Shown: piece by piece, positions 190-15,503 of the stretch
Numbering within the stretch: the stretch's first letter is position 1
Layout: each line of letters begins with the position of its first letter
From: a virus
Taxonomy: Duplodnaviria; Heunggongvirae; Uroviricota; Caudoviricetes
IMG/VR virus record: IMGVR_UViG_2579778894_000014
Location: 1-15,503 of that record
Direction: 5' to 3' (one strand)
DNA length: 15,503 bases
Notes under the pieces: generated by a model
Seen by the model: only the letters and a program-made list of their open reading frames with translations
The model's database searches: none
What the model was told of the DNA's origin: nothing
Translations under genes and position numbers: made by a program

Positions 190-191
190 AC

Positions 192-764: not shown

Positions 765-825
765 TTTATTTTCCAGTTATCAGGTCATTATCGAAGCCCC
801 TCCTGGAAGAGCTTCTGTAATGCTA

Positions 826-1350: not shown

Positions 1351-1810
1351 TTACCACCCCACCAGCATCTTTAAACCTGGAAATCAGGTCACCGATTTTA
1401 TGTTCATACTGACCGTAACCTGCACCAGGTAACGACGCCCAGATATTGCTGCAACGGTCGATTGCCTGACGAATATCGCCACGGTCAATCATCGGTAAAG
1501 CGCCACGCTCTTTAATCTGCTGCAGCGCCACAGCGTCCTGACTTTCTGGCGAAAAATCTTTCAGGCCAAGCTGCTTACAGTAGGCATCCCACCAGCGTGA
1601 AAGAAGCTGATACCGGCCTGCGGCTGTTGATTTAAGCTTCGGGTTTAGCGTGACAAGTTTGCGAGGGTGATCGGAGTAATCAGTGAACAACTCACCTCCG
1701 ACGATAACGTCATAACCGTGATTACGTGTCGGTTGTCGCCCGTTATCCGTTCCTTCTGACCATGCCACCATATCCAGGAAAGCTTTACGTTGGGAATTTA
1801 GTGTCTGCAT
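1334..1810 (-). CDS. R: Endolysin, lambda R-type lytic transglycosylase
   Basis: 158 aa, the same length as lambda R and nearly identical to it as I recall the lambda sequence (QRKAFLDM.AWSEGTDNGRQ.TRNHGYDVIVGGELFTDYSDHPRKLVTLNPKLKST.AGRYQLLSRWWDAY.KQLGLKDFSP.SQDAVALQQIKERGALPMIDRGDIRQAIDRCSNIWASLPGAGYGQ). GGAG Shine-Dalgarno 7 nt upstream. Follows the holin gene with a 3-nt gap. Confidence 0.95.
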   Translation of the reverse strand: MQTLNSQRKAFLDMVAWSEGTDNGRQPTRNHGYDVIVGGELFTDYSDHPRKLVTLNPKLKSTAAGRYQLLSRWWDAYCKQLGLKDFSPESQDAVALQQIKERGALPMIDRGDIRQAIDRCSNIWASLPGAGYGQYEHKIGDLISRFKDAGGVVNEADL

Positions 1811-1813
1811 GAA

Positions 1814-2155
1814 TTACTCCTTAGAGCCACCAAACTTGTTACCGATTACTCGCATTGCAGCCCCACGAATAGCATCGACACCGATCAGCCCAACACCACC
1901 ACCAATGGCAACAGAAAGCGATTTAGGCCATCCGACATACTCAAGAGCGGATGCAAAAGTCAGCGTCAGAGCACCACAGAGCAAAATCTCAAGCGTTTTT
2001 CGTTTCCAGCCGCCGCCACCGCCAAAATAGGCAATGCGCAAGCCAGCCATAACAATTGACATAACCACTGCGCCCAACGGCGTATCTCCACGCCACCAAC
2101 TTTGTAAGAGTTCCAGTAAGTCAGGCCAGGAATGAGGAGCATTGTGCATTTTCAT
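1814..2155 (-). CDS. Holin with MKM dual-start motif
   Basis: The track ORF starts at 2173, but GGAGGT (complement of 2162-2167) lies 6 nt upstream of the ATG at 2155, and the protein then begins MKM with a second in-frame ATG at 2149, the same dual-start arrangement as lambda S. The product has hydrophobic TM segments, Gly-rich stretches and a charged C-terminus, and directly precedes the endolysin. The sequence is not lambda S itself. Confidence 0.75.
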   Translation of the reverse strand: MKMHNAPHSWPDLLELLQSWWRGDTPLGAVVMSIVMAGLRIAYFGGGGGWKRKTLEILLCGALTLTFASALEYVGWPKSLSVAIGGGVGLIGVDAIRGAAMRVIGNKFGGSKE

Positions 2156-2255
2156 ACTTCCCACCTCCGCCATTACGGGGTGTTGTTGAAAGGCGGGCCC
2201 TGCGTATACGCCCGTAGGATTGGGTTATGAGCCGTCCTTCGGTGGGCCCTGAATA

Positions 2256-2279
2256 CAAAAAAAGTTCGCCATAGCGAAC
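2256..2279 (-). terminator. Intrinsic terminator (candidate tR'-like) about 100 nt upstream of holin
   Basis: Read on the minus strand: GTTCGC-TATG-GCGAAC (6-bp perfect stem, 4-nt loop) followed by TTTTTTT. On the plus strand this is A7 at 2257-2263 then the hairpin at 2264-2279. Confidence 0.5.
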
Positions 2280-2506
2280 CTTGTTAAATTTGTTAAAAAA
2301 GGAGGTTATTTAACATAATGTACGTTATAGGAACCACACGATCCCCGCTCGCAATAGATTTGCGATGAAAGGCCTATTTAATCAACTTAAGTGGTCCAGA
2401 ATGACGAAATTCGAGTGAATAAAAGGTGCATAAAAAAGGGCAAAAACTGCATAGCGTTTTTTCGCAGCGAAAGCCCTGTTTTATTAACTTTTCCCCAGAA
2501 TGGGGC

Positions 2507-2533
2507 AATAAAAAAGGCCCCCTTGCGGAAGCC
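2507..2533 (-). terminator. Intrinsic terminator downstream of the 113-aa ORF
   Basis: Read on the minus strand: GGCTTCC-GCAA-GGGGGCC (7-bp stem including two G-U pairs, GNRA-type loop) followed by TTTTTTATT. Confidence 0.45.
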
Positions 2534-2600
2534 TCTTCGTGATGAACTGTTTTCAACAGATATCAGGCTAATCGGCTTTTTGGAATTCCACAACTATTTT

Positions 2601-2942
2601 TTATCTTACCTTGATGCCTGATGCCGTCAGATGTTTACGACAGTCCTGAATACCTTCGTTATAACCCGCATCGTAGAAGCTATCCGGCTTTGCCTTCAGC
2701 GCAGGAAGCGTAACGCTGGTAGCTCTTCGTTCGGCCAGAACACCTGCCTGAAAGAGTGTCCACATCAACTGAACTGCTGAATCACAGTAAGTAACATCTT
2801 CACTGTACAATTCTCGTTCAATCCTGATGCCAAGTTGAGCCTTCATTGATGCGCCAATATTACCTTTGACCTGCAACGACAGGTCTGGGTACCTCTGTTC
2901 CATGAAGCTTTCAAATCTGTTGCGAACGCTGATCAGAGCCAT
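2601..2942 (-). CDS. Hypothetical protein in the Q-to-lysis gap
   Basis: 113-aa ORF starting 31 nt after the Q stop, with a GGGAA-type SD a few nt upstream. No signal peptide and no family recognised by me. Plausible protein composition. Confidence 0.6.
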   Translation of the reverse strand: MALISVRNRFESFMEQRYPDLSLQVKGNIGASMKAQLGIRIERELYSEDVTYCDSAVQLMWTLFQAGVLAERRATSVTLPALKAKPDSFYDAGYNEGIQDCRKHLTASGIKVR

Positions 2943-2973
2943 CTGGTTCCCTTACGTGATTGATTGCTGGATA

Positions 2974-3396
2974 TTATGCCGCCGAGCAGCTCCTACGCAA
3001 AGTCCTGATAGCCTGAGGCTTTGACTGAACCGACTGATCCATTTCGAGCACCACATCCAGCATGGCTAAGCAACCGTCAATAAATCCCTCTGCCGCCTGA
3101 AGCCTCTTCAGAACGTGGGTGTGAGATACGCCGAGCTTCTCACCCATCGCCCGCACGGGCATGGCCTGGACGTAATGCCACTCAAGGAGCGTGCACAGAT
3201 ACGGATCTTTTTTCTTCAGGCAGCTCATAGCGGAGTTGATGATAAGACCGTCATTGTCACTGCATTTCAGCCTTCCAGACTGCGTCGCGGGTAGCAGATT
3301 CTTAAACCCGGCTGCAACAGGAGGAAAGTAGACGCTACCACCTTCACTCGCTGCCCAGCCACCCCAGCGCTCTAAAACCTGTTGAATATTACGCAT
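2974..3396 (-). CDS. Q: Late-gene antitermination protein Q (Phage_antitermQ family)
   Basis: 140 aa. N-terminus MRNIQQVLERWGGWAA...AAGFK and later KRLQAAEGFIDGCLAMLD resemble E. coli prophage Q proteins (QuuD-like) as I recall them. GAGGT SD upstream. Lies upstream of and co-directional with the lysis and packaging genes. Confidence 0.8.
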   Translation of the reverse strand: MRNIQQVLERWGGWAASEGGSVYFPPVAAGFKNLLPATQSGRLKCSDNDGLIINSAMSCLKKKDPYLCTLLEWHYVQAMPVRAMGEKLGVSHTHVLKRLQAAEGFIDGCLAMLDVVLEMDQSVQSKPQAIRTLRRSCSAA

Positions 3397-3441
3397 AGCT
3401 CTGACCTCTACGTTTTGCTACGTTTGGAAATTTTCTACTAC

Positions 3442-3672
3442 TCAATACTCGTTGAATGTCAGGTGGCCGCTAACACTGACGTTTGGCCCGTCAGATAACA
3501 CAAGCTGGAAATTGTCGTCGCAAACAGAGCAGCCGAGGTCAATAACTACCGTTTTGTCGTGTTTATGCGCTCGCATGGCGACATCGCGAATAAACACGCT
3601 GTTACTAGCGCAGCGTGGGCAGGTAATTTCGTTATTTCCGTCGATATGATTTTTTAATCCTGAAACTTTCAT
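3442..3672 (-). CDS. Small zinc-ribbon protein (CxxC...CxxC), function unknown
   Basis: 76-aa ORF with GGAG SD 8 nt upstream of the ATG at 3672. Paired cysteine motifs CPRC and CSVC. Sits between the iteron array and Q. Confidence 0.6.
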   Translation of the reverse strand: MKVSGLKNHIDGNNEITCPRCASNSVFIRDVAMRAHKHDKTVVIDLGCSVCDDNFQLVLSDGPNVSVSGHLTFNEY

Positions 3673-3721
3673 GTTGTTTACTCCAGCTAGTTATTTGCAA
3701 ATATTTGCAAGTTAATTTCCG

Positions 3722-3987
3722 GGTGACGGCTAGGTGACGCGTAATTACATATCCGTCACCTGCTGCAAAGCGCGCCATATAAAGCCTGAAGATGTTTTAG
3801 GTGACAGGTGACGGTTGATTTTAGTTCTATATATATATAAGCGATCGTATAATACCTAAAATACACACTCTCGCGTATATAGTTTTAAATTCTGCCGTCA
3901 CCTGTCACCTTTAGCACATTCCCCATTGTTTTATATATACTTTTTAAGGTGACGCTTAAGCGTTTTGCCGTCACCTAGCCGTCACCT
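3722..3987. repeat. Mirror-symmetric iteron array (10 GGTGAC/GTCACC hexamers) flanking an AT-rich core; candidate replication origin
   Basis: GGTGAC at 3722, 3733, 3800, 3807, 3948; GTCACC at 3755, 3897, 3904, 3970, 3981. Outer pairs are spaced 11 bp, inner pairs 7 bp, and all positions are mirror-symmetric about ~3854. The outer arms are near-perfect inverted repeats (GGTGACGGCTAGGTGACG). The centre 3814-3896 is AT-rich with a TATATATATA run. TTGCAA boxes at 3695-3710 and 4002-4017 flank the array. It lies immediately 3' of the replication-protein gene. Confidence 0.6.
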
Positions 3988-3989
3988 TT

Positions 3990-6251
3990 TTACAATCCAG
4001 ATTGCAAAATTTCGCAAGATTTATATATTTCGCGCAATTCTTCGTTGCTGAAATCGTTATTTTTTACAAGAATCCAAATCCTATATACAAACCCGTCAAT
4101 TTTTACGCGTACGGGTTCCCGCTTTGTTCTTTCTTTCAAAATGCGAGTAATATGCTTCTGGTTAATTTCTACATCCATTCCTGCTTCTGCCAGTATTGCG
4201 TTAACAATTTGTTGATAAGTCATTGCTGGCACAGGCGGATTATCCAGGATTTCAATAAGAGCAGCCTCCACATCGCTCTTATTGCTTTCAATCATCAGAA
4301 GGCGTTCTTTCGTCTCGGGGGCGCGCTGCCAGTTAAAGCGAGACAGGTCAACGCCCATTAGATACCAGTACACCTGGGCGATAAAGTCGCTGTCGCTTAG
4401 CGCACCGTACAGGCTGGCGTAATGCTCTTCAGTTGCGGCGAAGTCAGGGCCCCCCAGCACAGCTATACGTCGGTCTTCCTCTGGCAGCGCCAGCGCATCA
4501 AAGTGGTTGGTGTAGAACAGAAAGCCGGTGTATATATCCATCGTTTTTTTGCTGCCATATTTGCGGTTCACTTCAAACCGTGGTTCTGTCAGCACGTCAC
4601 GGATCTTATCGTTCACCTCATACCGCTTATCGTTTTCGCGCACCTCGTCAATGGTGCATAGAAGTGTATTGTACAGATAGTCATGGAACTGGTTATCGCA
4701 CAGGATCTTCATGCGAGTACGAGCACAGTTCCACGGGCCAAGCACGCGCTCCATTAACTGACTGACCCATCCTCTGCCCGTACCATGTGCGGTAGCCACA
4801 TGCAGAATAGAAATCGGGCATCGACGCTCCGGACGCTGAACCATCCACCCCAGACGGGCGATGAAAAACTCGCGCTGCCAGGCATCAGGTACCAGATACG
4901 CCATATGATTAAGGAACGTGGACACCTTACTTGTATCCGCTGTACGTGGATGCTCAGGCATATAAAATTCGTTTATCTCAAACCGCCCGTCGAAACGCTC
5001 GATAATACGTCCCGCACCGGGCTTATAGCCTGTCGTCTCAGCAATCTTCTTATGCCGATGCTCTATCCACCGTTTGGTTGCGGGAGTTGGTTGTCCTTTC
5101 CCTTCTGGCGGGAACTGGTAAGGCGCCATCAGGTTTTTGAACGACTTCATATCCATCATGCACTGATATGGCGGTCGGCTAAGATCACATACCTGGTCAC
5201 CCTCGATGACGTAGATAAAGCGTTCCAGAAAATGAGCTGTCATATCTGTATTAATATCGGTAAATTCAGGCTTATCGCCATCTTCAGCCACCGTGAGATC
5301 TTCGAACAGGGATTGCGTATAGCCGTAGCCTTCCAGCCAGTCGGCATCAGTAAGCCCCGCATCGGTGTTGTGCATGCTTTTAAAATGTCCCTGTTCAAAT
5401 CCCCCCGTCCCTTTTGGGAAATACTTAATGGATGTTTCGCTGCAACCGTTGCTGTATTCTGACTCATCCCGAAACGGTTTCAGATTGCGGGAACCATCAG
5501 AGCTGACTGACAGAGTCCACCCGTTCGCGTCAAGCCAGTCGGCGACATCATCTGTCGCGGAAGGATCAACACAGGAAAGGTCACGCTGACGTCCTGCACC
5601 TGCGGTATAGCTGTCTTTCACGGGTAAGTTATCCGCCAGACGCTGCCACAGGCTTTCGAGCTGTTCAGATGTAATTTTCAGAGGTTCGCCGGGCAAACCG
5701 CTGTCCCACTGAATACGTTCGCCTGCCGGATGGGTACCACAAGCCACAAACTGCTGGCCCTTAGCGAGCAGCTCTATTTGTTTGTTTTCGCCTTCCAGGC
5801 GGTGACCACGTTTACGGTAGTCGCCATCAACAGCAATCAGGTACAGGCATTTATGACTGTCAGCCCGCCAGCGACGTGGCGGAAGTTCCCCCAGGCATGA
5901 TAGGATAATATTGCGTACGATCTCCTGCATCCCGGCGTCATTGATATCGCAGTCCAGAGCCACCACCCCGTCGCCAGTACGAACGCAAATACCGTAATCG
6001 GGTTCGTTCGACCACCGGGCAAAATCGTTTTCCGTAACAACATAGTTAGCCCAGTCGGGGATACCAACAACCTTACGTTGGCCATTGTAGCGACTGGGGG
6101 TTTTGCCGAAATTATGAGACAGCTTGCTATTAGGCGACAGTTCTGCACAGGGATTGGACACCACAGGTAAAAGCCTGTCTGTCATCCCCAACACCAGATC
6201 GAAGTAGAACCACTCATCGGGCGTAGCTCCCCATGGTTTGTTATCAGACAT
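3990..6251 (-). CDS. Replication protein, primase-like (primase-polymerase-type N-terminal region; P4 alpha-like size and context)
   Basis: 753-aa ORF whose start overlaps the stop of the Cro-like gene, suggesting translational coupling. The N-terminal region contains VVALDCDI (a DxD-type catalytic-like motif) and GTHPAG. hhhhDE-like TIDEV is present in the C-terminal half. I could not find a canonical Walker A GxxxxGK[ST], so helicase activity is not supported from sequence. Iteron array lies immediately downstream. Confidence 0.65.
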   Translation of the reverse strand: MSDNKPWGATPDEWFYFDLVLGMTDRLLPVVSNPCAELSPNSKLSHNFGKTPSRYNGQRKVVGIPDWANYVVTENDFARWSNEPDYGICVRTGDGVVALDCDINDAGMQEIVRNIILSCLGELPPRRWRADSHKCLYLIAVDGDYRKRGHRLEGENKQIELLAKGQQFVACGTHPAGERIQWDSGLPGEPLKITSEQLESLWQRLADNLPVKDSYTAGAGRQRDLSCVDPSATDDVADWLDANGWTLSVSSDGSRNLKPFRDESEYSNGCSETSIKYFPKGTGGFEQGHFKSMHNTDAGLTDADWLEGYGYTQSLFEDLTVAEDGDKPEFTDINTDMTAHFLERFIYVIEGDQVCDLSRPPYQCMMDMKSFKNLMAPYQFPPEGKGQPTPATKRWIEHRHKKIAETTGYKPGAGRIIERFDGRFEINEFYMPEHPRTADTSKVSTFLNHMAYLVPDAWQREFFIARLGWMVQRPERRCPISILHVATAHGTGRGWVSQLMERVLGPWNCARTRMKILCDNQFHDYLYNTLLCTIDEVRENDKRYEVNDKIRDVLTEPRFEVNRKYGSKKTMDIYTGFLFYTNHFDALALPEEDRRIAVLGGPDFAATEEHYASLYGALSDSDFIAQVYWYLMGVDLSRFNWQRAPETKERLLMIESNKSDVEAALIEILDNPPVPAMTYQQIVNAILAEAGMDVEINQKHITRILKERTKREPVRVKIDGFVYRIWILVKNNDFSNEELREIYKSCEILQSGL

Positions 6252-6254
6252 GGG

Positions 6255-6455
6255 TTACGCCTTTTGTCTAGCTGTCACTTCCTGAAAAAGCTTTTCTATC
6301 GCACGTACTGTAGAAAAGCGAGGGTCAGAATGAACCCCGGTGAGAAGCCGACTAATAGAAGACTGCTTCACGCCTGCAATTTCGGCAATTTGGTTTTGGG
6401 TATACCCTGAATCAATCAAGCTTTTGACCATCTCTTGTGGTGTTAGTCCGGACAT
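6255..6455 (-). CDS. Cro-like HTH (XRE-family) DNA-binding protein
   Basis: 66 aa with helix-turn-helix signature QNQIAEIAGVKQSSISRLL. GGAGA SD 7 nt upstream. Divergent from the CI-type repressor across a 141-bp region and first gene of the rightward replication operon. Confidence 0.75.
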   Translation of the reverse strand: MSGLTPQEMVKSLIDSGYTQNQIAEIAGVKQSSISRLLTGVHSDPRFSTVRAIEKLFQEVTARQKA

Positions 6456-6596
6456 ATTTAAGTCTCCACTTTCGTCTATAGCGCAAATTTATACGAAAAC
6501 GGATTATTCAGCAATACAGCAATTCTATATCATCCTGTATTAAAATATCCGATAACGCATAATCACCGTCCCTGTATACAACATGGATGAATCCAA
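6456..6596. promoter_or_regulatory. Divergent operator/promoter region of the immunity switch (OR-like)
   Basis: 141-bp AT-rich region between the divergent cro-like and cI genes. Contains ATAACGCATAAT at 6552-6563, a motif repeated twice at the promoter downstream of cI. Candidate -10 TATAAA (complement of 6488-6493) and -35 TTGCTG (complement of 6509-6514) for the cro-side promoter, but spacing is only 15 bp, so the exact promoter is uncertain. Confidence 0.55.
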
Positions 6597-7271
6597 ATGA
6601 TTGATACTACCGATATCCTTTCTCAAAACATCAAGTACCTGATGGACAAAACCAAGATAAGCTCGATAACTGAGCTGGCACGTCGGTTACAGCTGAACCA
6701 ACCAACGCTACACAGGCTGGTATCAGGAGAGGTGAAAGATCCGAAATACGCAACGTTAAAGCAGATCGCCGACTACTTCCACGTGTCACCAATAGACCTG
6801 GCAGAAAGGAGCCTTCAAGAAATGGAGAAAGAGGACGCGACAGGTATAAAAACGTATATTTCTCTTAGGTTTAATAAAGTACCTGTTTTGGGAAACACTC
6901 AGCTAGGCGTTGGAGGACTTTGGAGCGACACCCAATATTCAGTAGGTAGCAGTGATGGTTTCATATACTGGCCGACAAAGGATGAAGATGCATACGCCCT
7001 GAAATGTGTTGGTGATTCAATGATGCCTAGAATCAAAGAGGGTGAGTTCGTAATCGTCGAACCCAACCACGACTACACTCCTGGTGATGAAGTACTTGTG
7101 GTTACCCGGGACGGTGAGGTCATGGTTAAAACCTTCTTGTTCGAACGCGATGGCCTGTTCCATCTAATATCTGTAAATGAAGATCATCCACCAGTCAGAG
7201 TACCACGCGAAAACATTGAAAAAATCCATTACGTGGCGGGGATCGCCAAATCCGCGCTACGCATGTACTAA
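6597..7271 (+). CDS. cI: CI-type prophage repressor (N-terminal HTH plus C-terminal LexA-like S24 peptidase domain)
   Basis: 224 aa. N-terminal HTH (ISSITELARRLQLNQPTLHRL). C-terminal CVGDSMMPRIKEGEFVIV with the GDSM serine nucleophile and a downstream VMVKTF lysine, typical of LexA/CI autocleaving repressors. Confidence 0.85.
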   Translation: MIDTTDILSQNIKYLMDKTKISSITELARRLQLNQPTLHRLVSGEVKDPKYATLKQIADYFHVSPIDLAERSLQEMEKEDATGIKTYISLRFNKVPVLGNTQLGVGGLWSDTQYSVGSSDGFIYWPTKDEDAYALKCVGDSMMPRIKEGEFVIVEPNHDYTPGDEVLVVTRDGEVMVKTFLFERDGLFHLISVNEDHPPVRVPRENIEKIHYVAGIAKSALRMY

Positions 7272-7301
7272 CCTTTACAGTCTGATAACTTACCTCTGAT
7301 C

Positions 7302-7335
7302 AAACCGCTCTCCACAAGGGCGGTTTTCTTATTTG
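7302..7335 (+). terminator. Intrinsic terminator after cI
   Basis: AAACCGC (7302-7308), 11-nt loop, GCGGTTT (7320-7326), followed by TCTTATTT. Confidence 0.5.
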
Positions 7336-7355
7336 CAAAATAATTCATTTTCGTA

Positions 7356-7384
7356 TTGACACAAAATCCCATAACGCATATAAA
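7356..7384 (+). promoter_or_regulatory. Strong sigma70-type promoter, pL-like early-left promoter, overlapped by operator-like repeats
   Basis: TTGACA (7356-7361), 17-bp spacer, TATAAA (7379-7384). ATAACGCATA (7371-7380) overlaps the spacer and -10, and ATACCGCATAAT (7389-7400) sits just downstream. Confidence 0.5.
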
Positions 7385-7420
7385 TACGATACCGCATAAT
7401 TAATGCATTTTCTAATACCA

Positions 7421-7432
7421 GCTCTTTAACAA
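7421..7432 (+). promoter_or_regulatory. boxA-like antitermination element in the early-left leader
   Basis: GCTCTTTAACAA matches the rrn/lambdoid boxA core (UGCUCUUUAACAA) as I recall it, about 30 nt downstream of the predicted transcription start. Confidence 0.45.
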
Positions 7433-7577
7433 ACAGAACCGCGTGACAGGTAAGCCGCAGTGCTCCTGGCAAAACGAAATAGCACCCGATGGGATCGAGG
7501 TAAGCGCCGAGTCCGTATGCGTACGGTAAGCGTAGAGGACAACACCGCGACGAACTGATAAGTCACGCAAGTTGAAA

Positions 7578-7606
7578 CGCCCCGATGATGGGGCGCTTAG
7601 TTCCTT
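7578..7606 (+). terminator. Hairpin with weak U-tract (possible leader terminator or pause site)
   Basis: CGCCCC-GATGAT-GGGGCG (6-bp stem) followed by CTTAGTTCCTTT. Confidence 0.3.
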
Positions 7607-7698
7607 TAACTCTGGGTGACCGGAAGGGTACCCATGCTTAAAGAAATTACTGGTTGTAAGGATCGTAATCCGTGATTGCCTTCCCCGGATTTTCATCT

Positions 7699-8217
7699 TC
7701 AGAAGGCAGTCGGGCCTCTAAAGCATTTCGGGTTGAACAGATAGGAAGCCCTACAGTACGAACAAACCATATTAACGACTCGCCCAAGGCCTGGCTTAGT
7801 AACCAGACCTTCCGCTTGCAATATAGATTTTCTCTTTTGCTCGTAGCAATTGGGACAAATATAAACCGGAGATTGGTCAGCATCTGCAGAAAGCTTGCTG
7901 CGATAGACCAGAGTACCCCGCATAGGCTGGTAAAGTTCATAGCTCGCCGCTTCAGCGGCCCAGTTCTCTTGCTTTACTTTCTCATTTTCCAGTTCAACAA
8001 TTTTCTCCTTAGCCGCAATCAGCAGCTCCTGAAGCGACATTTGCTGCATCTGAACATCCATTAGCTTATCGAGTAAGATGTGCGTCTTCTCTTTAACTGC
8101 ATAGTCGACAGTCAGATTCTGAATCTCTCTTGCTGCTCCAACCGCGCTTTTAATTGCTCCTCCCACACCGGATAACGATTCAGTTATCCGGGAAAGAATT
8201 CCTTTTTCTTCAGACAT
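7699..8217 (-). CDS. Hypothetical coiled-coil protein with C-terminal zinc-ribbon (CPNC...CSYC); cI-adjacent accessory gene
   Basis: 172-aa ORF on the strand opposite to the early-left transcript. Central heptad-like region (LQELLIAAKEKIVELENEKVKQENW) and C-terminal CxxC...CxxC. GAGAGA SD-like sequence upstream. Its promoter region carries two direct repeats ACTGTAGGGGT at 8234-8244 and 8268-8278. Confidence 0.65.
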   Translation of the reverse strand: MSEEKGILSRITESLSGVGGAIKSAVGAAREIQNLTVDYAVKEKTHILLDKLMDVQMQQMSLQELLIAAKEKIVELENEKVKQENWAAEAASYELYQPMRGTLVYRSKLSADADQSPVYICPNCYEQKRKSILQAEGLVTKPGLGRVVNMVCSYCRASYLFNPKCFRGPTAF

Positions 8218-8356
8218 ATCTAATCTCTCTCAAACTGTAGGGGTGAAGAGATATTAGACGATTTCTCACTGTAGGGGTACAAGGAGAACCACCTCGCCTG
8301 ATGTGGTTAAAAGCAGGCACTCGATGATATCCATGTAATTGCTGTGTGTAGTCTTT

Positions 8357-8382
8357 GCCCGCCGCAAGTGACGGGCTTTTTT
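8357..8382 (+). terminator. Intrinsic terminator on the plus strand upstream of the early-left genes
   Basis: GCCCG (8357-8361), 10-nt loop, CGGGC (8372-8376), followed by TTTTTT (8377-8382). Confidence 0.45.
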
Positions 8383-8420
8383 ATGTCTGAAAGCGCACTC
8401 GCAACAGCGTGCTCCCCGAT

Positions 8421-8591
8421 ATGAAAAAAGGAATACAACCGATGAAACCTGAACACATCCATCGACTGACGGGGCGCGATGTTCTCCGTTATCGCCGTAA
8501 AAACTTCGATTTGATGACCGGTCTGGCCGTTGCCACTGCGCTCGGTCTGATCATCACTTTCATTCTCCTTGTAGCGAGGACCACAGTATGA
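8421..8591 (+). CDS. Small membrane protein (single C-terminal TM helix)
   Basis: ATG at 8421 (the track used GTG at 8409); an alternative in-frame ATG at 8442 is preceded by AAGGA. C-terminal hydrophobic segment LAVATALGLIITFILLVA. Stop overlaps the next ATG (ATGA), suggesting coupling. Confidence 0.5.
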   Translation: MKKGIQPMKPEHIHRLTGRDVLRYRRKNFDLMTGLAVATALGLIITFILLVARTTV

Positions 8592-9490
8592 GTTTAGAAA
8601 CCAGTCTAGAACTTAATAATCAACTTCTGGCACAACATAATGCGCTGCTTGAACGTCTTATCCGCACAATGGCATCAGGTATTGTTATGCATCCTGACAC
8701 GATTTCACGAGTGCAGGAATGTCGGGATACAGCAACTGAAACTGAAAATATGTCAGCGGCAATGACACTGGATGATCTGGAGTTCAGCGACGTTATCGCA
8801 CTGGCTGGTTTCTACCCGGTAGCCACCCCTATCACAGAAGATATGCTGCAACGTGCTGTTGCCTACCGTGATGCTGAAGGCGATAAACGAGTAGTTCAGA
8901 TTGATGCTCTCGACAGCGCATTGCAGGGCGTCAAACGAGCCAGGGCGCTGCTTAAACCTGCTCTCCTGGACCTGTCCCGTAACATCCTTAAGTTCTGGGA
9001 CGACCTGCCAACCATCGGCGAGCGACGTGCTTTTGCCGAGCAGCTACTTGATGCACCTGCAGATGGGCGTGATGAAGTTAAGCCGAAAAAGGCCAGTAAC
9101 AAAGATGGAGAACGCACGGGGCCGTTTTACGTCAAAAATGTATCCGGCACAGCAGCCAGTGAACTCCACACCTTACGCAAGTTGAACGAGATGCTTAAAA
9201 AAGGCCATATCGAGATCAACCGTGTTGAGTACCTTCAGCTGCAGGAAGAATTTGCACGCAGAGACGCAGCAAATTCCAGCCAGAATAATGACGCCAAAGA
9301 TGACCATACAATTGATTTCGCGGCACTACGCAAACAAGCTGAAGGGTTGATCCTCCAGTTAGCAAAAGGGGGCTACCGGGCAGAAGCTATTGCAATTCTG
9401 GAAAAACAGGGAGCCAGGAAACTTGGTGAAGTAACGGATGAAAATCTCGCTGAAGTAATCACCCTGGCTGAAAAAGCACTGGAGGGTTAA
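8588..9490 (+). CDS. Hypothetical protein
   Basis: 300-aa ORF, translationally coupled to the flanking genes. Acidic, helical-looking composition. No family recognised. Confidence 0.7.
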
Positions 9491-9492
9491 TC

Positions 9493-10794
9493 ATGCCAGA
9501 CGTTCACGCACAACTTTCTCCATCATCAGCGCATCGATGGATGCGCTGCCCAGGAAGTCTGGCGCTGGAGGCCACACAACCGGATAAAGAAACAACTTTT
9601 GCAATCGAGGGCACTACAGCGCACGCGCTTGCTGAAAAAGTTCTACGAAACAGGCAAAGCCACCCGGAACACTACGCCGGATGCAATGTTTCTATGTTTC
9701 TCGGCTCATACCCCCTTCGCGAAAATCCTGATGATACATCTGGCCCACAGGTGGATGATGAAATGGTCGAAGCCGTCGGCCGGTATGTTGATACGGTCTG
9801 GACTCTTGCACAGAATAATGAACTATTGGTTGAACAACGTGTTGATTTCTCACATATAACGGGTGTGGAAGAATCTTTCGGAACTGCCGACGGCATAATC
9901 ATCGCTGGTAACGAATTACAAATCCACGACCTGAAATATGGCAAAGGCGTCCGCATTGATGCAGAACAAAATGAGCAACTACAACTGTATGCTCTGGGTG
10001 CTCTCGAACAATTCAGCATGCTGTATGACTTTGAGACTGTAAGATTATTTATTCACCAGCCAAGGCTCAACCACGTTTCAGAATGGTCGTTAACCGTACA
10101 GGAACTTCAGTCTTTCGGTGAACGGGCACTGGAGGCCGCAACCAGTGCGATCCTTGTTCTCAATATTGCTGAATGCGAAGGCATTGAGACACTACCGCTG
10201 GAAAACTTCATACCTGGAGAAAAACAGTGCCGCTTCTGTAAAGCAAAAGCTATTTGCACTGCCCAGAAAATGCAGCATTTACAAACAGCGGCCAGCGATT
10301 TTGAAGATCTGACAAAGCCTGTCAGCGAAATAATCACCAATGCCAGCGCACGTGTACCTCTGTTAACCATTGAGCAGCTTGCAGAGATCTATAGCCAGGC
10401 CGACTTTATTGAATCCTGGCTAAAGGCAGTACGGGACCGGGTTCACGATGAACTCAATGCCGGACATCCGGTACCGGGGTTTAAACTGGTAACAGGAAAA
10501 CAAGGTAACCGGGCCTGGAGTGATGAAGAGGCAGCTCGCGCACTTCTGAAGGACCAGTTCAGGTACAAAACTGAAGAAGTATTCGACTTTAAACTTATTA
10601 GTCCCACAAAAGCCGAAAAACTTATCAAAAAGGCCAGTCCGCGCCGTTGGTCAAAAGTCGAGGCACTGATAACACGAGCTGATGGAAAACCCACCGTCGT
10701 TCCCGAGTCAGACCCACGCCCCGCACTCAATATCAACCCTGTAAATGATTTCGACGACGTATCCGACGATACGCTAACCGCAGACCTCATCTGA
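9493..10794 (+). CDS. PD-(D/E)XK nuclease, DUF2800-like (Cas4-like phage exonuclease)
   Basis: 433 aa. N-terminal [14 protein letters not shown] is characteristic of DUF2800 proteins as I recall them. [23 protein letters not shown] fits a D...D-x-K nuclease core, and the [10 protein letters not shown] cysteine cluster is Cas4-like. GGAGGG SD upstream. Confidence 0.75.
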
Positions 10795-10809
10795 TTTAAG
10801 GAAATACCC

Positions 10810-11358
10810 ATGAAACTGAAGCTGAACAATGTTCGTCTGGCCTTCCCGTCTCTGTTTGAAGCTAAAACTGTAAACGGCGAAGGCGATCCGCGTTTCTCCG
10901 CAGTATTTTTAATGTCTCCCAAACACCCACAACTGGAAGAAATCCGTAAAGCTATGAAGCAGGTAGCGAAGGAAAAATGGGGAGAGAAGTGGGAGCCCAT
11001 TTATAACCAGCTGGAGAAAAAACTCAATCTGTGCCTGCATGATGGTGATGAAAAAGCAGAGTATGAAGGCTTCCCCGGTAATTTCTTCCTGAATGCTGCT
11101 AACAAAGCGCGCCCAGCTGTTCTTGATCGCGATCGTTCGCCACTTATTCAGGCTGACGGACGTCCCTATGCAGGGTGCTATGTAAACGCCGTTATCGATA
11201 TCTGGGCACAGGACAATAATTTCGGTAAACGCATTAATGCCTCACTCGGCGGAGTCCAGTTCCTGCGAGACGGCGATGCATTCGCTGGCGGCGGAGTGGC
11301 AAGCGCTGACGATTTCGACGATATCAGCGAAGGTGCTGATGCTGAAGCACTAATTTAA
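10810..11358 (+). CDS. DUF2815-like phage protein (proposed ssDNA-binding protein)
   Basis: 182 aa. N-terminus MKLKLNNVRLAFPSLFEAK resembles DUF2815 family members, which typically pair with DUF2800 and a family A polymerase. Acidic C-terminal tail DDFDDISEGADAEALI. AAGGAA SD upstream. Confidence 0.7.
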   Translation: MKLKLNNVRLAFPSLFEAKTVNGEGDPRFSAVFLMSPKHPQLEEIRKAMKQVAKEKWGEKWEPIYNQLEKKLNLCLHDGDEKAEYEGFPGNFFLNAANKARPAVLDRDRSPLIQADGRPYAGCYVNAVIDIWAQDNNFGKRINASLGGVQFLRDGDAFAGGGVASADDFDDISEGADAEALI

Positions 11359-11373
11359 CCCTACTTCATAGAC

Positions 11374-11392
11374 GCCCGGTTAAACACCGGGC
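11374..11392. other. Perfect 7-bp stem-loop between convergent genes (possible factor-independent terminator lacking a U-tract)
   Basis: GCCCGGT-TAAAC-ACCGGGC, located between the DUF2815 stop (11358) and the stop of the reverse-oriented membrane gene (11411). Confidence 0.3.
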
Positions 11393-11410
11393 TACTGATT
11401 AGGCGTATAA

Positions 11411-12040
11411 TCACTCAGGAATCTTAATCTTTCTCAATTCTTTATTTAGTTCACAGATCTTTTTCTTAGACGGGAAAGTATCATACATCCAAAAACCAAC
11501 AGTCTCTAAAACTATTATCATAACCATATACACAAGATAATTTAAAAGGCCTTCATTTTGCCCTATGGAAATAATGCAGATAATAGAAAAAAGGGTAAAC
11601 AGCACAAAACACAGAAAGGAAAACAGACGACTAATAATAAATAAAAAACCTGAAAAATCAACATTAATAAAAAACACTCCGTTATCTTTCTCTATATAAT
11701 TCTGAAGCTTAATCAACTGATTTATATACTGTCTTTTTTCTAATCTATTGCAAATGTAAATAACATCTCTTCGGTTATAAGATGATTGCAATTTCAGCGC
11801 ATCACGAATAATTTTATCATTTATTCTTTTTTCTATGGCACTCTTATCCTCCTCATCCAGATAACGTTCATACTTAACTAAATATAAAATTAACTTCTTA
11901 ACATATTTAGGCTCTTTATACTTATAATTAAAAATGATCTTTCTTATCCAGACTCCCATAACAATCAAACATGAAAAAATATATCCAGCTATTTTCTCCA
12001 GATGCTCTGTATGGTCAATCAAGTATTGGATCATATGCAT
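11411..12040 (-). CDS. Membrane protein of unknown function in an AT-rich inserted segment (moron)
   Basis: 209-aa ORF on the opposite strand to the flanking replication genes. The segment ~11400-12080 is conspicuously AT-rich (roughly 30% GC by eye) against ~50-55% in the neighbours. Predicted N-terminal TM (IAGYIFSCLIVMGVWI), a Lys/Glu-rich middle region and 2 C-terminal TM helices (FLFIISRLFSFLCFVLFTLFSIICIISI; LVYMVMIIVLETVGFWM). Confidence 0.65.
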   Translation of the reverse strand: MHMIQYLIDHTEHLEKIAGYIFSCLIVMGVWIRKIIFNYKYKEPKYVKKLILYLVKYERYLDEEDKSAIEKRINDKIIRDALKLQSSYNRRDVIYICNRLEKRQYINQLIKLQNYIEKDNGVFFINVDFSGFLFIISRLFSFLCFVLFTLFSIICIISIGQNEGLLNYLVYMVMIIVLETVGFWMYDTFPSKKKICELNKELRKIKIPE

Positions 12041-12086
12041 AATTAATCTTTTAATCAGTTAATAGAATAAAAACCAAGGTAAACAC

Positions 12087-14150
12087 ATGTCCAATATACT
12101 ATGGGGCGACCTGGAAACCTATTGCGAAATCCCTATTACGAACGGTACCCATGCGTATGCCGAAGGCGTTGAAGTGATGCTTTTCGCATGGGCTATCAAC
12201 GACGGGCCAGTAAACGTGTGGGATATCACTGCCGGTGGTGGTATTCCACACGGCTTATACGAAGCAATCGCAGACCCTGAAACCCTGCTTTATTTCCATA
12301 ACTCTCACTTCGACCGCACCGTTCTGCGTTATGCAATGCCGCGCCTGGCACCGCCAGTCGAACGTTGGCGCGACACAATGGTGCAGGCGCTGGCGCACGG
12401 CCTCCCGGGGTCTCTGGGGGAACTCTGCGAAATACTCGGCGTCCCGCAAGACAAAGCGAAGGACAAAGAAGGTAAAGCGCTGATCCAGCTGTTCTGTAAG
12501 CCACGCCCGAAAAACAGCAAACTGCGTCGGGCCACCAGTAAAACCCACCCGGAAGAATGGCGGCGCTTTGTTGCTTACGCCGGACTGGATATCGAGGCAA
12601 TGCGCGAAGTCTATAAACGTCTGCCGAAGTGGAATTATCAGGGGACAGAACTGGCGCTCTGGCATCGTGATCAGCAGATCAACGACCGGGGCGTCTGCAT
12701 GGACATTCAACTCGCGCGCGCTGCGATCGAAGCGGTAGACCAGGAGCAAAAGCGCCTGGCAAAGCGTACACAGGAAATGACTGATGGCGAAGTGCAGGCA
12801 GCCACACAACGAGACGCGTTGATTAAGCACATTGTTGAATCCTACGGTGTGGAGCTACCAGACATGCAACGCAGTACTCTGGAACGTCGTATTGCCGACC
12901 CCGATTTACCATCTGCCGTGAAAGAACTGCTGGCTATCCGCCTGCAGGCCAGTACTACCAGCACCAGTAAATACAAGGCACTGATGAAAGGCGTAAGCCA
13001 CGACGGGCGCTTACGCGGTACGCTACAGTTCTGCGGGGCGTCACGTACCGGTCGTTGGGCCGGACGGCTATTCCAGCCCCAGAACCTTCCCCGCCCTTCA
13101 CTAAAACAGGAACAAATAGACGAAGGCATCGAAGCACTGAAAGCCGGATGTGCAGACCTGCTGTTTGACAATATCATGGAACTAACCAGTTCAGCGTTAC
13201 GTGGCTGCATTATCGCGCCAACAGGCAAAAAGCTGGTGGTAAGTGACTTGTCGAACATTGAAGGCCGTATGCTGGCATGGCTGGCGGGAGAAGAATGGAA
13301 ACTGAATGCATTCAGAGAGTACGACGCCGGAACGGGTCCGGACTTATATAAACTGGCGTATGCAAAAGCTTTCGATATTGCACCAGATGATGTTGATAAA
13401 CACATGCGTCAGATCGGTAAAGTCATGGAACTCGGTCTGGGTTATGGTGGTGGTGTGTCGGCCTTCATCACTTTTGCACTGGTTTACGGTCTCGATCTCG
13501 ACGAGCTGGCGAACGCCGCACTACCAAACATTCCCCGCGATGTTATCCGCGAGGCGAAAAGCTGGTACGACGAATCGGTTAAACGCAAGTCAACCTACGG
13601 GCTTTCTGAACGGGTATTTATCGCCTGCGACTCACTTAAACGTCTCTGGCGCCGGGCGCATCCCGCGACCTGTGATTTCTGGTACGAACTGGAGCGCACC
13701 GTCCGCACTGCAATCGCCACACCGCAAAAAACATTGTATTGCGGTTATCTTAAAATCCGCCGCGATGGCGCGTGGCTGCGCATACAGCTACCATCCGGAC
13801 GCGCTGTATGCTACCCGTCTCCGGTTATCGAAAAAGGGAATATCACCTACATGGGGGTTAACTCTTATTCGCGTAAATGGCAACGACTCAAAACCTACGG
13901 CGGAAAGCTGGTGGAGAACATCACCCAGGCGGCCGCCCGCGACATTCTGGCCGGAAACATGCCGCTTATCGAAGATGCCGGTTACAGCATTGTGCTGACG
14001 GTACACGACGAGGTGATCACCGAAGCACCTGACACAGAAGATTTCAACGATAAAGCGCTTTCCGCGCTTCTCTCCACTGACCCCGAATGGGCGCCCGATA
14101 TCCCACTGAACGCTGGCGGTTTTGAGGCGTACCACTACAAAAAAGATTGA
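12087..14150 (+). CDS. Family A DNA polymerase (PolA-like) with N-terminal 3'-5' exonuclease domain
   Basis: 687 aa. Exo motif WGDLETY near the N-terminus. Polymerase motif A ([20 protein letters not shown]), motif B ([16 protein letters not shown]) and motif C (VHDEV). Confidence 0.9.
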
Positions 14151-14214
14151 TATAACTCACCTTATCGAGCTATGGCGACATGCTGAATTCGAGTAAATTA
14201 AAGGAACAATACTT

Positions 14215-14976
14215 ATGCAGGAACTAACTGAAATGCCGATCACCTATCCATACCCGAGAGAAACTTTTCCTGACTTTTTGAGGGAGTGTGGGTTCACCAA
14301 TTTTTCCCACGAACAGCGTGAGACTTGTGACTGCTATCGTTTAACGAATGGCGTAATTGTTAACCTTTACACCACCCGGACCATTCAGTTTCAAGGTAAC
14401 CCTCAAGAACGTCCCAATGTTGAAACTGCAATAATGACCCATTTAGGAACGCCGCCCACGGCAACACCACTAGCCGTAGAACAGCCATCTGAGCTCCCCA
14501 AAAAGATATTCATTGTTCACGGCCATGACCATACTGCAAAGGAGCAACTTGAGCTAATCCTTCATAAACTTGGATTACCAGACCATTTCATTTTGCAGAA
14601 TACGGGAGGGACTGGACTCACCATTATTGAAGAGCTTGAACGTGAAATTGGGCAAGGACAAACTGCTACCCGTTTCGGGATTGTTCTTTTGACACCTGAT
14701 GATATGGGATACTCAAAGCGCGCCGGTGAAGCAGAAATCCAACCCCGCGCAAGACAGAACGTTGTACTCGAGATGGGTATGCTTCTTTCGTCCTTAGGGC
14801 GCAGCAATGTAGCAATCCTTCAGAAACAGCACCTAGAACAGCCTTCTGATGCTAACGGGATTTTGTATCTGAATTTCAACGACCATGTACGTGAAACAGT
14901 TCCTCGTCTAGTGCAACGGTTACAAAATTCTGGTTTCGAATTTACACAAGCTCAAATAGCTAACGCTTCCTCGTAA
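14215..14976 (+). CDS. Two-domain protein: unknown N-terminal domain plus C-terminal TIR-like Rossmannoid domain (CAP12/PycTIR-type family)
   Basis: 253-aa ORF with AAGGAA SD upstream; last gene of the operon before a strong terminator. The C-terminal ~150 aa contains KKIFIVHGHDH, GGTGLTIIEELE, FGIVLLTPDD and NVVLEMGMLLSSLG, which I recognise as the pattern of prokaryotic TIR-like nucleotide-binding domains (conserved Glu followed by Gly). The N-terminal ~95 aa has no recognised family. Domain assignment is from memory, not a search. Confidence 0.6.
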   Translation: MQELTEMPITYPYPRETFPDFLRECGFTNFSHEQRETCDCYRLTNGVIVNLYTTRTIQFQGNPQERPNVETAIMTHLGTPPTATPLAVEQPSELPKKIFIVHGHDHTAKEQLELILHKLGLPDHFILQNTGGTGLTIIEELEREIGQGQTATRFGIVLLTPDDMGYSKRAGEAEIQPRARQNVVLEMGMLLSSLGRSNVAILQKQHLEQPSDANGILYLNFNDHVRETVPRLVQRLQNSGFEFTQAQIANASS

Positions 14977-14999
14977 TTACCCCTTATTGTTGATTACAA

Positions 15000-15023
15000 C
15001 CCTGCATCGCGGGGTTTTTTATT
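15000..15023 (+). terminator. Intrinsic terminator ending the early-left operon
   Basis: CCCTGC-ATC-GCGGGG hairpin (15000-15014) followed by TTTTTT (15015-15020) and ATTT. Confidence 0.6.
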
Positions 15024-15210
15024 TGGGAATAAAAACCCTATGTCATTTAAATACCGGGACAGTCCGCTTTATTACCGGACTGTGCGGGAGGCTTTGCACC
15101 TTGAACAGTCCGGCGGGTACGACCGGGCGATGCAGGTCTGGGCCAAAGCGAACGTCGGTTTGATTTTTGTCTGATGCAGAACATGCGCGAAAAGCGTAAG
15201 GAGGTGGACG

Positions 15211-15405
15211 ATGTCTAATATCGATAATAAGGGTTGGGGGTTCCCCGCTCTGTCAAAAAAAGCACATTTCTTTAATTCGGGGGAAGCCATATCACTATGC
15301 GGAAAATGGATGTTCATAGGTATCAGGATTGATGAATGGCATGACCATCCTGAGAACTGCGCTATCTGCATGAAGAAACGCAAAAAGCAGGAAGGCGAAA
15401 GCTAA
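15211..15405 (+). CDS. Small Cys/His-rich protein (putative zinc-binding), function unknown
   Basis: 64-aa ORF with a near-consensus SD TAAGGAGGT 6 nt upstream of the ATG. Contains C...H-x-H...C-x2-C (CGKW...WHDHPENCAICMKK) and a basic C-terminus. Preferred over the overlapping minus-strand 103-aa ORF. Confidence 0.55.
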   Translation: MSNIDNKGWGFPALSKKAHFFNSGEAISLCGKWMFIGIRIDEWHDHPENCAICMKKRKKQEGES

Positions 15406-15503
15406 GTAAGCGACTCGTCAGAACCGTATTGATATTTACTGAGAGCTCAGATCAACTTTCCAGGGCAACAGATCGCGTACCCGGTTTGCCGGCCAGTCCT
15501 GGA

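Follow-up and report, generated by a model that had tools for sequence, protein, structure and literature searches.

A lambdoid Escherichia coli prophage region with a two-arm replication cassette, an arginine P-loop initiator and a candidate iteron origin

How does a phage that keeps the switch and the lysis genes of lambda replicate its DNA when its initiation genes are not those of lambda? The question is raised by a stretch of 15,503 nucleotides from a member of the Caudoviricetes (IMG/VR record IMGVR_UViG_2579778894_000014), hereafter the window, and it bears above all on a gene for a 753-amino-acid (aa) replication initiator and on the 279 bp that follow it. The window covers immunity, early functions, and lysis in a temperate E. 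coli phage, and positions 1–15405 are 99.2% identical to a prophage of E. coli strain BCE049. Its regulatory skeleton is lambdoid, and its replication and recombination genes form a cassette known from the phages APSE-1, BPP-1, YeP4, BcepC6B, and Xfas53. An earlier, sequence-only reading had described a polymerase-based replication set that lies on both sides of cI/cro and is joined to a lambdoid switch and lysis cassette, an arrangement that the gene calls bear out. The range to which it was attached, 8421–14150, holds only the cI-side arm; Cro, the initiator, and the candidate origin lie at 3712–6455. The absence of lambda O/P-type genes, which it had also noted, stands as well, no such family being present among the open reading frames (ORFs) searched against Pfam and PHROG or in the annotation of the near-identical prophage. 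The explanation that best accounts for the whole, and that we hold with good confidence, is a lambdoid phage with this known cassette and a self-contained initiator/origin scheme. The cassette itself is known, and the probable origin is the new element of the present analysis. Table 1 gives the features and their coordinates.

The initiator and its P-loop arginine

The initiator combines a PrimPol domain, a collar, an SF3/DUF5906 ATPase, and a predicted C-terminal winged helix. The Prim-Pol domain lies at aa 75–185 (Pfam 2.3e-7, above the cut-off), with its catalytic residues D100 and D102 invariant and H174 present in 20 of 25 aligned sequences, the remaining five being gapped at this position. 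The protein also matches PHROG 1156, annotated as 'DNA primase', at 8e-87. For the ATPase part, two sequence comparisons and one structural comparison agree: aa 488–595 match Pfam DUF5906 (E=9.6e-14), aa 456–659 match NrS-1's helicase domain (6K9C, E=6e-8) with the Walker A motifs aligned, and an AlphaFold2 (AF2) model built from 25 homologues (pLDDT 83.3) retrieves the C-terminal region of NrS-1 6K9C in Foldseek (E=5.6e-19, TM score 0.65 normalised to the target). Further Foldseek matches of the model are MPXV E5, vaccinia D5, the ASFV PrimPol, SaPI5 PriRep5, and the SaPI1 primase-helicase, with the SaPI structures 7OLA and 7PDS at about 1e-8 to 1e-9. In the model, aa 660–727 follow a helix-strand-helix-helix-hairpin pattern. 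In both NrS-1 and poxvirus D5, the AAA+/SF3 helicase core is a DUF5906 domain (PMC9611036).

By profile, alignment, and model, the initiator contains a phage-encoded helicase domain, whose unwinding activity is predicted. The sequence-only reading had correctly placed a Cro-like protein and a large primase-like initiator on this arm, as the Pfam matches to HTH_3 and Prim-Pol confirm, and it had suggested that the replicative helicase may be host-derived or encoded outside the window, a suggestion that a helicase domain assigned to 3990–6251 by profile was to refute; the DUF5906, 6K9C, and Foldseek matches make that assignment. Once a helicase domain is assigned to the initiator, there is no positive reason to invoke host DnaB, and phage replication would be independent of it.

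The same reading had reported that the 753-aa protein has no canonical Walker A motif, and by motif scan this is literally true: GxxxxGK[ST] occurs nowhere in the protein, and its sole P-loop-like string is 487-TAHGTGRG-494. In NrS-1, the Walker A motif reads 447-GKQGTGKG-454, with the catalytic lysine at position 453 (PMC7102993). The segment 489-HGTGRGW-495 of the initiator aligns with GKQGTGKG, which puts Arg493 at the position of Lys453, and HGTGRGW does not vary among any of the close homologues with the helicase domain. A scan of 1.84 billion representatives with this domain returned 7,066 relatives, and an alignment was made of 145 sequences, namely the window protein and 144 of the best 150 of these relatives, with identities down to about 31%. 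The P-loop residue is an arginine in 142 of the 145 and a lysine in 3. The Walker B glutamate E536 is kept in 144, the lysine K564 of the DNA-binding beta-hairpin in 143, the sensor asparagine N582 in 142, and the arginine fingers R594 in 143 and R595 in all 145, while D593 is kept in at least 95%. E536, K564, N582, and R594/R595 align with NEV, K525, SN, and R555/R556 of NrS-1, respectively (NrS-1 residues from PMC7102993). The arginine type is also found in the isolated Microcystis phage Mel-JY33; the lysine type is found in the Chi-like phage Siskin, APSE-1, YeP4, and BPP-1. A literature search in a limited collection found no relevant paper on an arginine-type P-loop, an absence that is not proof of novelty.

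Because the arginine is fixed in nearly the whole alignment, down to these low identities, with the other catalytic residues kept, it is on sequence grounds not a product of decay. Since the whole catalytic set is conserved, we infer that the initiator is an active arginine-type NTPase. A conserved arginine in the P-loop bears on the textbook rule of an essential Walker A lysine.

PrimPol parts of this kind are found joined to more than one type of ATPase. An E. coli protein (P0046) matches the PrimPol part of the initiator, its first 44%, at 97% identity and then continues into a VapE domain instead of DUF5906; judged from this alignment, it marks a recombination junction inside the initiator gene. 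Related PrimPol parts are likewise fused to differing ATPases, of the VapE type in APSE-1 P3 and the YeP4 primase, and with a GSNGKST P-loop in bbp29 of BPP-1. If the origin tracks the C-terminal domain, swaps of the initiator should bring the origin along.

A candidate origin next to the initiator gene

Ten GGTGAC iterons, arranged with dyad symmetry around an AT-rich core, lie in the 279-bp gap that separates the stop codon of the initiator gene from the following ORF. The copies stand at +3722, +3733, and -3753, then +3800 and +3807 on one side of the core, and at -3895 and -3902, then +3948, -3968, and -3979 on the other (signs give the strand). All eight matches to GGTGACRG in the window lie within 3722–3986, where 0.65 would be expected per window and none of 200 shuffles reaches eight; two GGTGACGC copies bring the iterons to ten. 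The core is about 73% AT and contains TATATATATATA. In the satellites of the SaPI group, the origin lies directly 3' of rep and has 6–12 iterons, two or more to either side of an AT-rich centre and in opposite orientation, read by a C-terminal winged helix (PMC9371898). The layout found here is of this kind, with ten copies beginning 4 bp past the stop codon and placed symmetrically about the AT-rich core.

The array is conserved in relatives. Counted from the stop codon, the iterons of the window stand at offsets +4, +15, -37, +81, +88, -178, -185, +230, -252, and -263, and 3' of the orthologues of Serratia oryzae and Trabulsiella this geometry recurs with deviations of no more than 1–2 bp; Xenorhabdus bovienii deviates by up to 4 bp. 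The array of X. szentirmaii is contracted on its far side by some 11 bp and has just eight matching copies, and in Arsenophonus and Avibacterium the pattern is recognisable and shifted. The two central bases of the iteron vary from lineage to lineage, with all copies changing in concert (GGTGAC, GGTAAC, GGTGGC, or GGTGTC), a pattern that would be expected of a binding array co-evolving with its protein. Residues in the wing of the winged helix differ between the iteron classes, and both GGTGGC lineages, which are distantly related overall, have Lys-Lys there; over the seven lineages compared, this correlation is no more than suggestive. Taken together, the layout and its conservation make 3712–3990 a probable origin of replication.

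Related palindromes bracket the array, TTGCAAATATTTGCAA at 3695–3710 and TTGCAAAATTTCGCAA at 4002–4017, the latter inside the last codons of the initiator gene. The palindrome at 3695–3710 is partly conserved in a Serratia relative. They could be sites for a second factor.

Not every member of the clade follows the origin rule, since no iteron array comes after the gene for a protein (P0055) with a 53%-identical arginine-type helicase domain on the Logan contig SRR22808062_736271. The context of this gene also differs, with no cro/cI upstream and an HTH gene downstream. The origin of that element may be placed elsewhere.

A wider generalisation can be offered tentatively, as one that we rate somewhat below an even chance: relatives of the initiator would make up a large unrecognised clade in which an arginine (GTGRG) stands in for the otherwise universal Walker A lysine and all the other catalytic residues are kept, with at least 142 clusters at 50% identity, ranging from enterobacterial prophages to cyanophages, and its members would be active, NTP-driven, self-loading replicative helicases working on a conserved dyad-iteron origin beside their own gene. 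If this is true, a natural arginine-type P-loop motor would be available for study, along with variants of initiator/iteron specificity for GGTGAC, GGTAAC, GGTGGC, and GGTGTC. A candidate origin lying beside its initiator gene, with iterons that vary together at a kept spacing, is in addition a tractable object for work on origin recognition by primase-helicases and for small orthogonal enterobacterial replicons.

The switch, the cI-side operon, and the late genes

The cI and cro genes are divergent. Within their intergenic region, no PR or PRM promoter could be assigned. Downstream of the CI gene, a terminator-like hairpin (7302–7326) is followed by a PL-like promoter that is overlapped by three operator-like sites (7339–7356, 7365–7380, and 7383–7398). 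Operator-like 16–18-mers, assigned to the repeat families D1 and I1, are common to 6489–6561 and 7339–7398, so that the window has a CI/Cro switch with predicted operators shared by two promoters, as is typical of lambdoid phages. The PL-like region is 78.6% identical to the stretch directly 3' of the YeP4 repressor gene. The promoter call is a reading of the sequence, a simple promoter scan having passed over this site, in which the -10 ends in A. The segment is read as the equivalent of PL/OL, a predicted function that would place the second promoter under the control of CI.

Table 1. Features of the window, in order of position (strand as in the window; a point denotes a site with no strand)
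Feature	Position	Strand	Evidence and remarks
Terminase small subunit	192–764	-	Pfam Terminase_2, E=1.1e-30; marks the start of the late/structural genes
Rz-like spanin, 174 aa	826–1350	-	Directly after R; matching phage records read 'endopeptidase Rz' or 'Rz-like spanin'
Lambda R-type endolysin, 158 aa	1334–1810	-	DNA identity to phage lysis genes; PGAP: glycoside hydrolase family 24
Lambda S-family holin	1814–2173	-	Pfam Phage_holin_3_1, E=1.2e-27
Q antiterminator	2974–3396	-	Pfam Phage_antitermQ, E=5e-42, full length
Small ORF, 76 aa, CxxC...CxxC	3442–3672	-	Translation; between candidate origin and Q
Candidate replication origin	3712–3990	.	Ten GGTGAC iterons, dyad symmetry, AT-rich core 3815–3894
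Replication initiator, 753 aa	3990–6251	-	PrimPol, collar, SF3/DUF5906 ATPase, C-terminal winged helix (about aa 660–727)
Cro-like repressor, 66 aa	6255–6455	-	Pfam HTH_3, 1.2e-9; 62% identity to YeP4 counterpart
cI/cro intergenic control region	6456–6596	.	Operator-like sites at about 6489–6506 and 6546–6561, repeated directly or inverted downstream of cI
CI repressor (helix-turn-helix, HTH, and S24 autopeptidase)	6597–7271	+	Pfam Peptidase_S24, 1.8e-18; HTH_26, 8e-12
PL-like promoter	7339–7398	+	-35 TTGACA 7356–7361, 17-bp spacer, -10 TATAAA 7379–7384
Opposite-strand ORF, 172 aa	7699–8217	-	PHROG 1244; occupies the lambda sieB position
RprA-like element	8273–8386	+	Rfam RF00034, 47.5 bits (gathering score 70), E=0.0019
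Small hydrophobic ORF, 49 aa	8442–8591	+	First gene of the cI-side operon; translation; annotated in the near-identical prophage
Conserved 300-aa protein	8588–9490	+	PHROG 6784, 1.5e-179; always directly 5' of DUF2800
DUF2800 PD-(D/E)XK nuclease	9493–10794	+	Pfam DUF2800, 2.4e-110 (full profile); PDDEXK_1, 9.8e-10; PHROG 69 'exonuclease'
[quoted passage not shown]
Low-GC (about 0.37–0.39) hydrophobic ORF, 209 aa	11411–12040	-	PHROG 10579; accessory gene inserted between SSB and PolA
Family A DNA polymerase (PolA) with 3'-5' exonuclease	12087–14150	+	Pfam DNA_pol_A, 3e-14; PHROG 17 'DNA polymerase', 4.6e-126
TIR-domain protein	14215–14976	+	Pfam CAP12-PCTIR_TIR, 2.9e-31; PADLOC PDC-S35, 6.8e-109

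Between this promoter and the cI-side operon, no ORF of at least 50 aa is found on the + strand of 7390–7670, and an N-like gene was not found. A put-like or other structured RNA at 7395–7610 was considered and rejected, the predicted fold being no more stable than those of shuffled sequences (z=0.6) and Rfam giving nothing there. The 172-aa ORF at the sieB position has no SieB profile match, and in the Serratia relative this slot is taken by a Pfam SieB gene. Positions 8230–8320 are 83.7% identical to lambda 34395–34485, which we take to lie just upstream of sieB, and sieB is the gene named at this match in related records. The sequence ACTGTAGGGGT is repeated directly, at 8234 and 8268.

The RprA-like element that follows is outside the replication system. 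Its AAUUGCUGUGUGUAGUCUUUGCCCG, a conserved single-stranded stretch, and its terminator hairpin align near-perfectly and with high posterior probability to the 3' part of RprA, whereas its 5' part does not align. It might be an imitation of processed RprA carried by a prophage, and it may serve as a terminator of PL transcripts before the cI-side operon. A literature search found no paper on a prophage-borne RprA-like element.

The cI-side operon opens with a small ORF, the place of which is also taken by a small ORF in YeP4. The 300-aa protein encoded next has no Pfam, PDB, or PADLOC match, and its homologues among the matches listed are all unnamed, with at least 72% identity. Its AF2 model (pLDDT 50) is confident in the last 60 residues only, and these C-terminal 60 aa are 56–71% identical to regions of APSE-1 (P53) and YeP4. 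In the DUF2800 nuclease, for which sequence search found no solved relative, the core D146-L-K148 is accompanied by four cysteines (C19, C246, C249, and C255), presumably a Cas4-like set. The SSB matches the Enc34 SSB structure 5ODJ (6.3e-16), has the acidic C-terminal tail DDFDDISEGADAEALI, and is probably an annealing protein as well. In the polymerase, all motifs are kept: Exo I (D8/E10), Exo II (71–76), and Exo III (164–168) of the exonuclease, and motifs A (386–394), B (441–454), and C (639–643) of the polymerase; motifs A and B match the structures of Taq and Pol I weakly. It is 73.5% identical to the YeP4 polymerase, 67% to that of BPP-1, and 61–65% to the APSE polymerases. NCBIfam gave no match near family cut-offs for any replication protein: none for the initiator, the DUF2800 protein, or the SSB, and only far sub-threshold Pol I matches for PolA. 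The assignment of DUF2800, DUF2815, and family A polymerase genes to this arm by the sequence-only reading is upheld by the Pfam profiles, with no reassignment.

Two genes of this operon region look like cargo. An opposite-strand gene stands between SSB and PolA also in APSE-1 and in the Serratia and Xenorhabdus relatives, and this junction looks like a recurrent insertion slot. The TIR-domain gene directly after the polymerase gene is a candidate for defence-type cargo in a replication operon; APSE-1, YeP4, and BPP-1 have no TIR gene at the corresponding place.

On the other arm, Q is followed by an S/R/Rz lysis cassette, as in lambdoid phages. Positions 1234–2128 are 89% identical at the DNA level to the R/S/Rz region of SfV, and the lysozyme genes of HK633, HK106, and mEp213 match positions 1346–1792 at 83–86% identity; Pfam searches gave no match for either the endolysin or the Rz-like spanin. 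The lambda-type R endolysin, Q, and CI named by the sequence-only reading are thus all present, the first by this DNA identity and the other two by Pfam. The 76-aa ORF between the candidate origin and Q has no family match in Pfam or PHROG, and its slot is also filled by a small ORF in relatives, namely P4 in APSE-1 and positions 12541–12870 in a related element (L005).

Of 5426 complete E. coli genomes, 26 carry at least 80% of the window. The deposited induced phages vB_EcoM-606R2, vB_EcoM-611R5, and vB_EcoM-689R2 are 98.3% identical to it, and a literature search by phage name returned no paper on them. In BCE049, yfhL adjoins the prophage, and the gene order is tail/baseplate, head, terminase, lysis, Q, initiator, and cro, then cI, the cI-side operon, and integrase. 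This is the lambda prophage order reversed, the minus strand of the window corresponding to the 'rightward' direction of lambda. The structural genes include a baseplate and are of the myovirus type. Beyond the window, the BCE049 prophage encodes a VRR-NUC nuclease (32407–32676), a 463-aa SNF2-related helicase (33630–35021; Pfam SNF2-rel_dom, 6.7e-12), and an integrase (35215–36612), the VRR-NUC label coming from PGAP naming only, as a Pfam search gave no match for that protein. The suggestion that a further helicase might be encoded outside the window is borne out by the SNF2-related gene. The last 98 bases of the window (15406–15503) match no close relative listed, and the matches to near-identical genomes and phages all end at 15405; the BCE049 position that corresponds to 15406 is the start of the VRR-NUC gene.

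A self-contained replication scheme, its rivals, and known systems

These elements can be assembled into a scheme. Loss of CI would open two divergent operons. The Cro-side operon would supply Cro and the 753-aa initiator, with transcription running on through the adjacent origin. The C-terminal winged helix of the initiator would read the GGTGAC iterons, and the protein would load itself; its SF3 ATPase ring would unwind the DNA, and its N-terminal PrimPol would lay primers. The cI-side operon would contribute elongation and processing through a proofreading PolA, a gp2.5-type SSB, the DUF2800 nuclease, and, from beyond the window, the VRR-NUC and SNF2 translocase proteins. The acidic tail of the SSB probably recruits the polymerase and the initiator, and the DUF2800 and gp2.5-type proteins, at the place of lambda exo/bet, probably also act as a recombination pair.

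Several points weigh against this scheme. The residue that corresponds to the catalytic Walker A lysine of NrS-1 is an arginine, and helicase activity is not assured, as P-loop NTPases usually lose hydrolysis when this lysine becomes an arginine. The iteron array might have a different DNA-binding role. A strong terminator-like hairpin with a U-run (8349–8385) and an antisense gene separate the PL-like promoter from the cI-side operon, and no N-like antiterminator was found. For the VRR-NUC and SNF2 genes, the evidence comes from the 99.2%-identical prophage and not from the window. Finally, every step of the mechanism is read from sequences or models.

The P-loop arginine opens the way to a different reading, close to that of the sequence-only analysis, in which the SF3-like domain is catalytically dead and serves as a scaffold for oligomerisation or origin binding, with the fork being unwound by host DnaB or by the SNF2-type helicase. 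Two observations speak for it, namely the want of a canonical Walker A motif, with an arginine at the position of NrS-1 Lys453 (PMC7102993), and the existence of a second helicase-like gene in the prophage. Yet in a dead domain, it would be unexpected to find the arginine fixed in 142 of 145 sequences and the Walker B glutamate, hairpin lysine, sensor asparagine, and arginine fingers kept in at least 95%, and isolated phages carry the arginine type. SNF2-type proteins, moreover, are double-stranded DNA translocases and not replicative helicases. We regard this reading as distinctly unlikely. The cI-side genes might instead be mainly a module for recombination and repair, an equivalent of exo/bet/gam with a repair-type polymerase, in which case bulk synthesis would fall to host Pol III after phage priming and the replication module would not truly be split. 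The DUF2800 protein is a PD-(D/E)XK nuclease, the gp2.5-type protein is of the annealing class (PMC8093625), both lie at the exo/bet place, and VRR-NUC and SNF2 suggest the processing of branched DNA. However, the polymerase keeps all of its exonuclease and polymerase motifs, and PolA travels with the primase/SSB/nuclease set in more than 1,700 phage records. These include Chi-like and Jersey-like genera, which we take to be virulent and which would then need a replicase of their own. Roles in repair and in replication are also not exclusive, and this alternative is, in our estimate, unlikely.

The array at 3712–3990, for its part, might be a regulatory or other cis site, used for autoregulation of the early operon, as a roadblock before Q, or in partition or packaging. 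Its location between the initiator gene and Q, where signals for termination or antitermination could sit, would suit such a role. Against this, the dyad symmetry, the AT-rich core, the place after the initiator gene, the ten copies, and the conserved geometry fit the SaPI rule (PMC9371898), and the iteron core varies by lineage in step with the initiator gene and the wing of its winged helix. We hold a cis site of this kind to be very improbable. The lambdoid phage with a known cassette and its own initiator and putative origin is retained as the preferred explanation.

The closest known systems are APSE-1, BPP-1, and YeP4. On the cro side, APSE-1 has a repressor gene divergent from a cro-like gene, P3 (752 aa, VapE-type), P4, a Q-like gene, and genes for holin, endolysin, and spanins; on the other arm, it has P53, the P51 exonuclease, the P50 gp2.5-like SSB, an opposite-strand gene, the P45 PolA, the P44 nuclease, the P41 helicase, xis, and int. 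BPP-1 and YeP4 are arranged like APSE-1, except that in BPP-1 a single methylase gene separates cro from the primase gene. The window phage has the same divergent cI/cro with a primase-helicase gene after cro (720–850 aa across the four phages) and the same cI-side order, which in common runs: unknown protein, DUF2800, gp2.5-type SSB, variable slot, PolA, VRR-NUC, SNF2, (xis), and int, with the distal VRR-NUC, SNF2, and int genes lying outside the window. PolA is 57–74% identical across phages of this type; CI, Cro, the nuclease, and the SSB of the window are 50–62% identical to their YeP4/APSE-1 counterparts, and the proteins of the cI-side operon are 55–74% identical to theirs by tblastn. 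The synteny of the APSE early genes with BPP-1, Bcep, Xfas53, and YeP4 has been published (PMC8579659), so that the novelty of the split layout implied by the sequence-only reading falls away. BcepC6B from Burkholderia and Xfas53 from Xylella are linked by PolA similarity and by the literature, and the cassette recurs in prophages of Serratia, Xenorhabdus, and Avibacterium, where it is combined with differing structural modules. The differences lie in the ATPase of the initiator, which is of the canonical GxGKS VapE type in APSE-1 and YeP4, carries GSNGKST in BPP-1, and is of the DUF5906 arginine type in the window phage; in the baseplate genes found in place of podovirus genes; and in the extra cargo, namely the TIR gene, the low-GC ORF, the gene that occupies the sieB slot, and an element like RprA.

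As in lambda, there are a CI/Cro switch, Q, S/R/Rz, and a gene at the sieB position, with initiation placed on the cro side, nuclease and annealing proteins on the cI side, and int as the distal gene. Unlike in lambda, there are no O/P genes and no logic of DnaB recruitment, an N-like gene was not found, and the phage has a primase-helicase, a polymerase, and an SSB of its own. By this analogy, the two-arm split follows the logic of lambda itself, with initiation and the putative origin on the cro side and the nuclease and annealing/SSB proteins at the place of exo/bet. A primase/helicase or a family A polymerase is reported for many lambda-like phages (PMC10975493), the 'duf2800-gp2.5-polA module' has been named, and gp2.5-type proteins have been classed as single-strand annealing proteins (PMC8093625).

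The initiator resembles NrS-1 (6K9C, 6K9E, and 6LRB), D5/E5, and ASFV C962R in combining an AEP PrimPol, a collar, and a DUF5906/SF3 ring. Among solved structures NrS-1 is the closest to it, yet it is only about 17% identical in sequence to NrS-1, whose PrimPol is itself the replicative polymerase, whereas the window phage encodes a separate PolA. In SaPI PriRep5, a primase is fused to a helicase (PMC9371898), as in the initiator; the similarity to SaPI Rep/PriRep, which are self-loading initiator-helicases, is at the level of the fold only, and it joins a staphylococcal satellite to a temperate phage of Gram-negative bacteria. The Enc34 module comprises a primase, a polymerase, VRR-NUC, a helicase, and a DUF2815 SSB (PMC5686142). 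The Enc34/Chi-like module is like that of the window phage in having a primase, PolA, a DUF2815 SSB, VRR-NUC, and a helicase, and the primase of the Chi-like phage Siskin, with a canonical GSGKT P-loop, is about 23% identical to aa 325–727 of the initiator. Enc34 and the Chi-like phages are presumably virulent siphophages that do without the cI/cro/Q frame. A lambdoid switch joined to a two-arm PolA cassette is thus a known mosaic, to which the window adds an E. coli member of the myovirus type.

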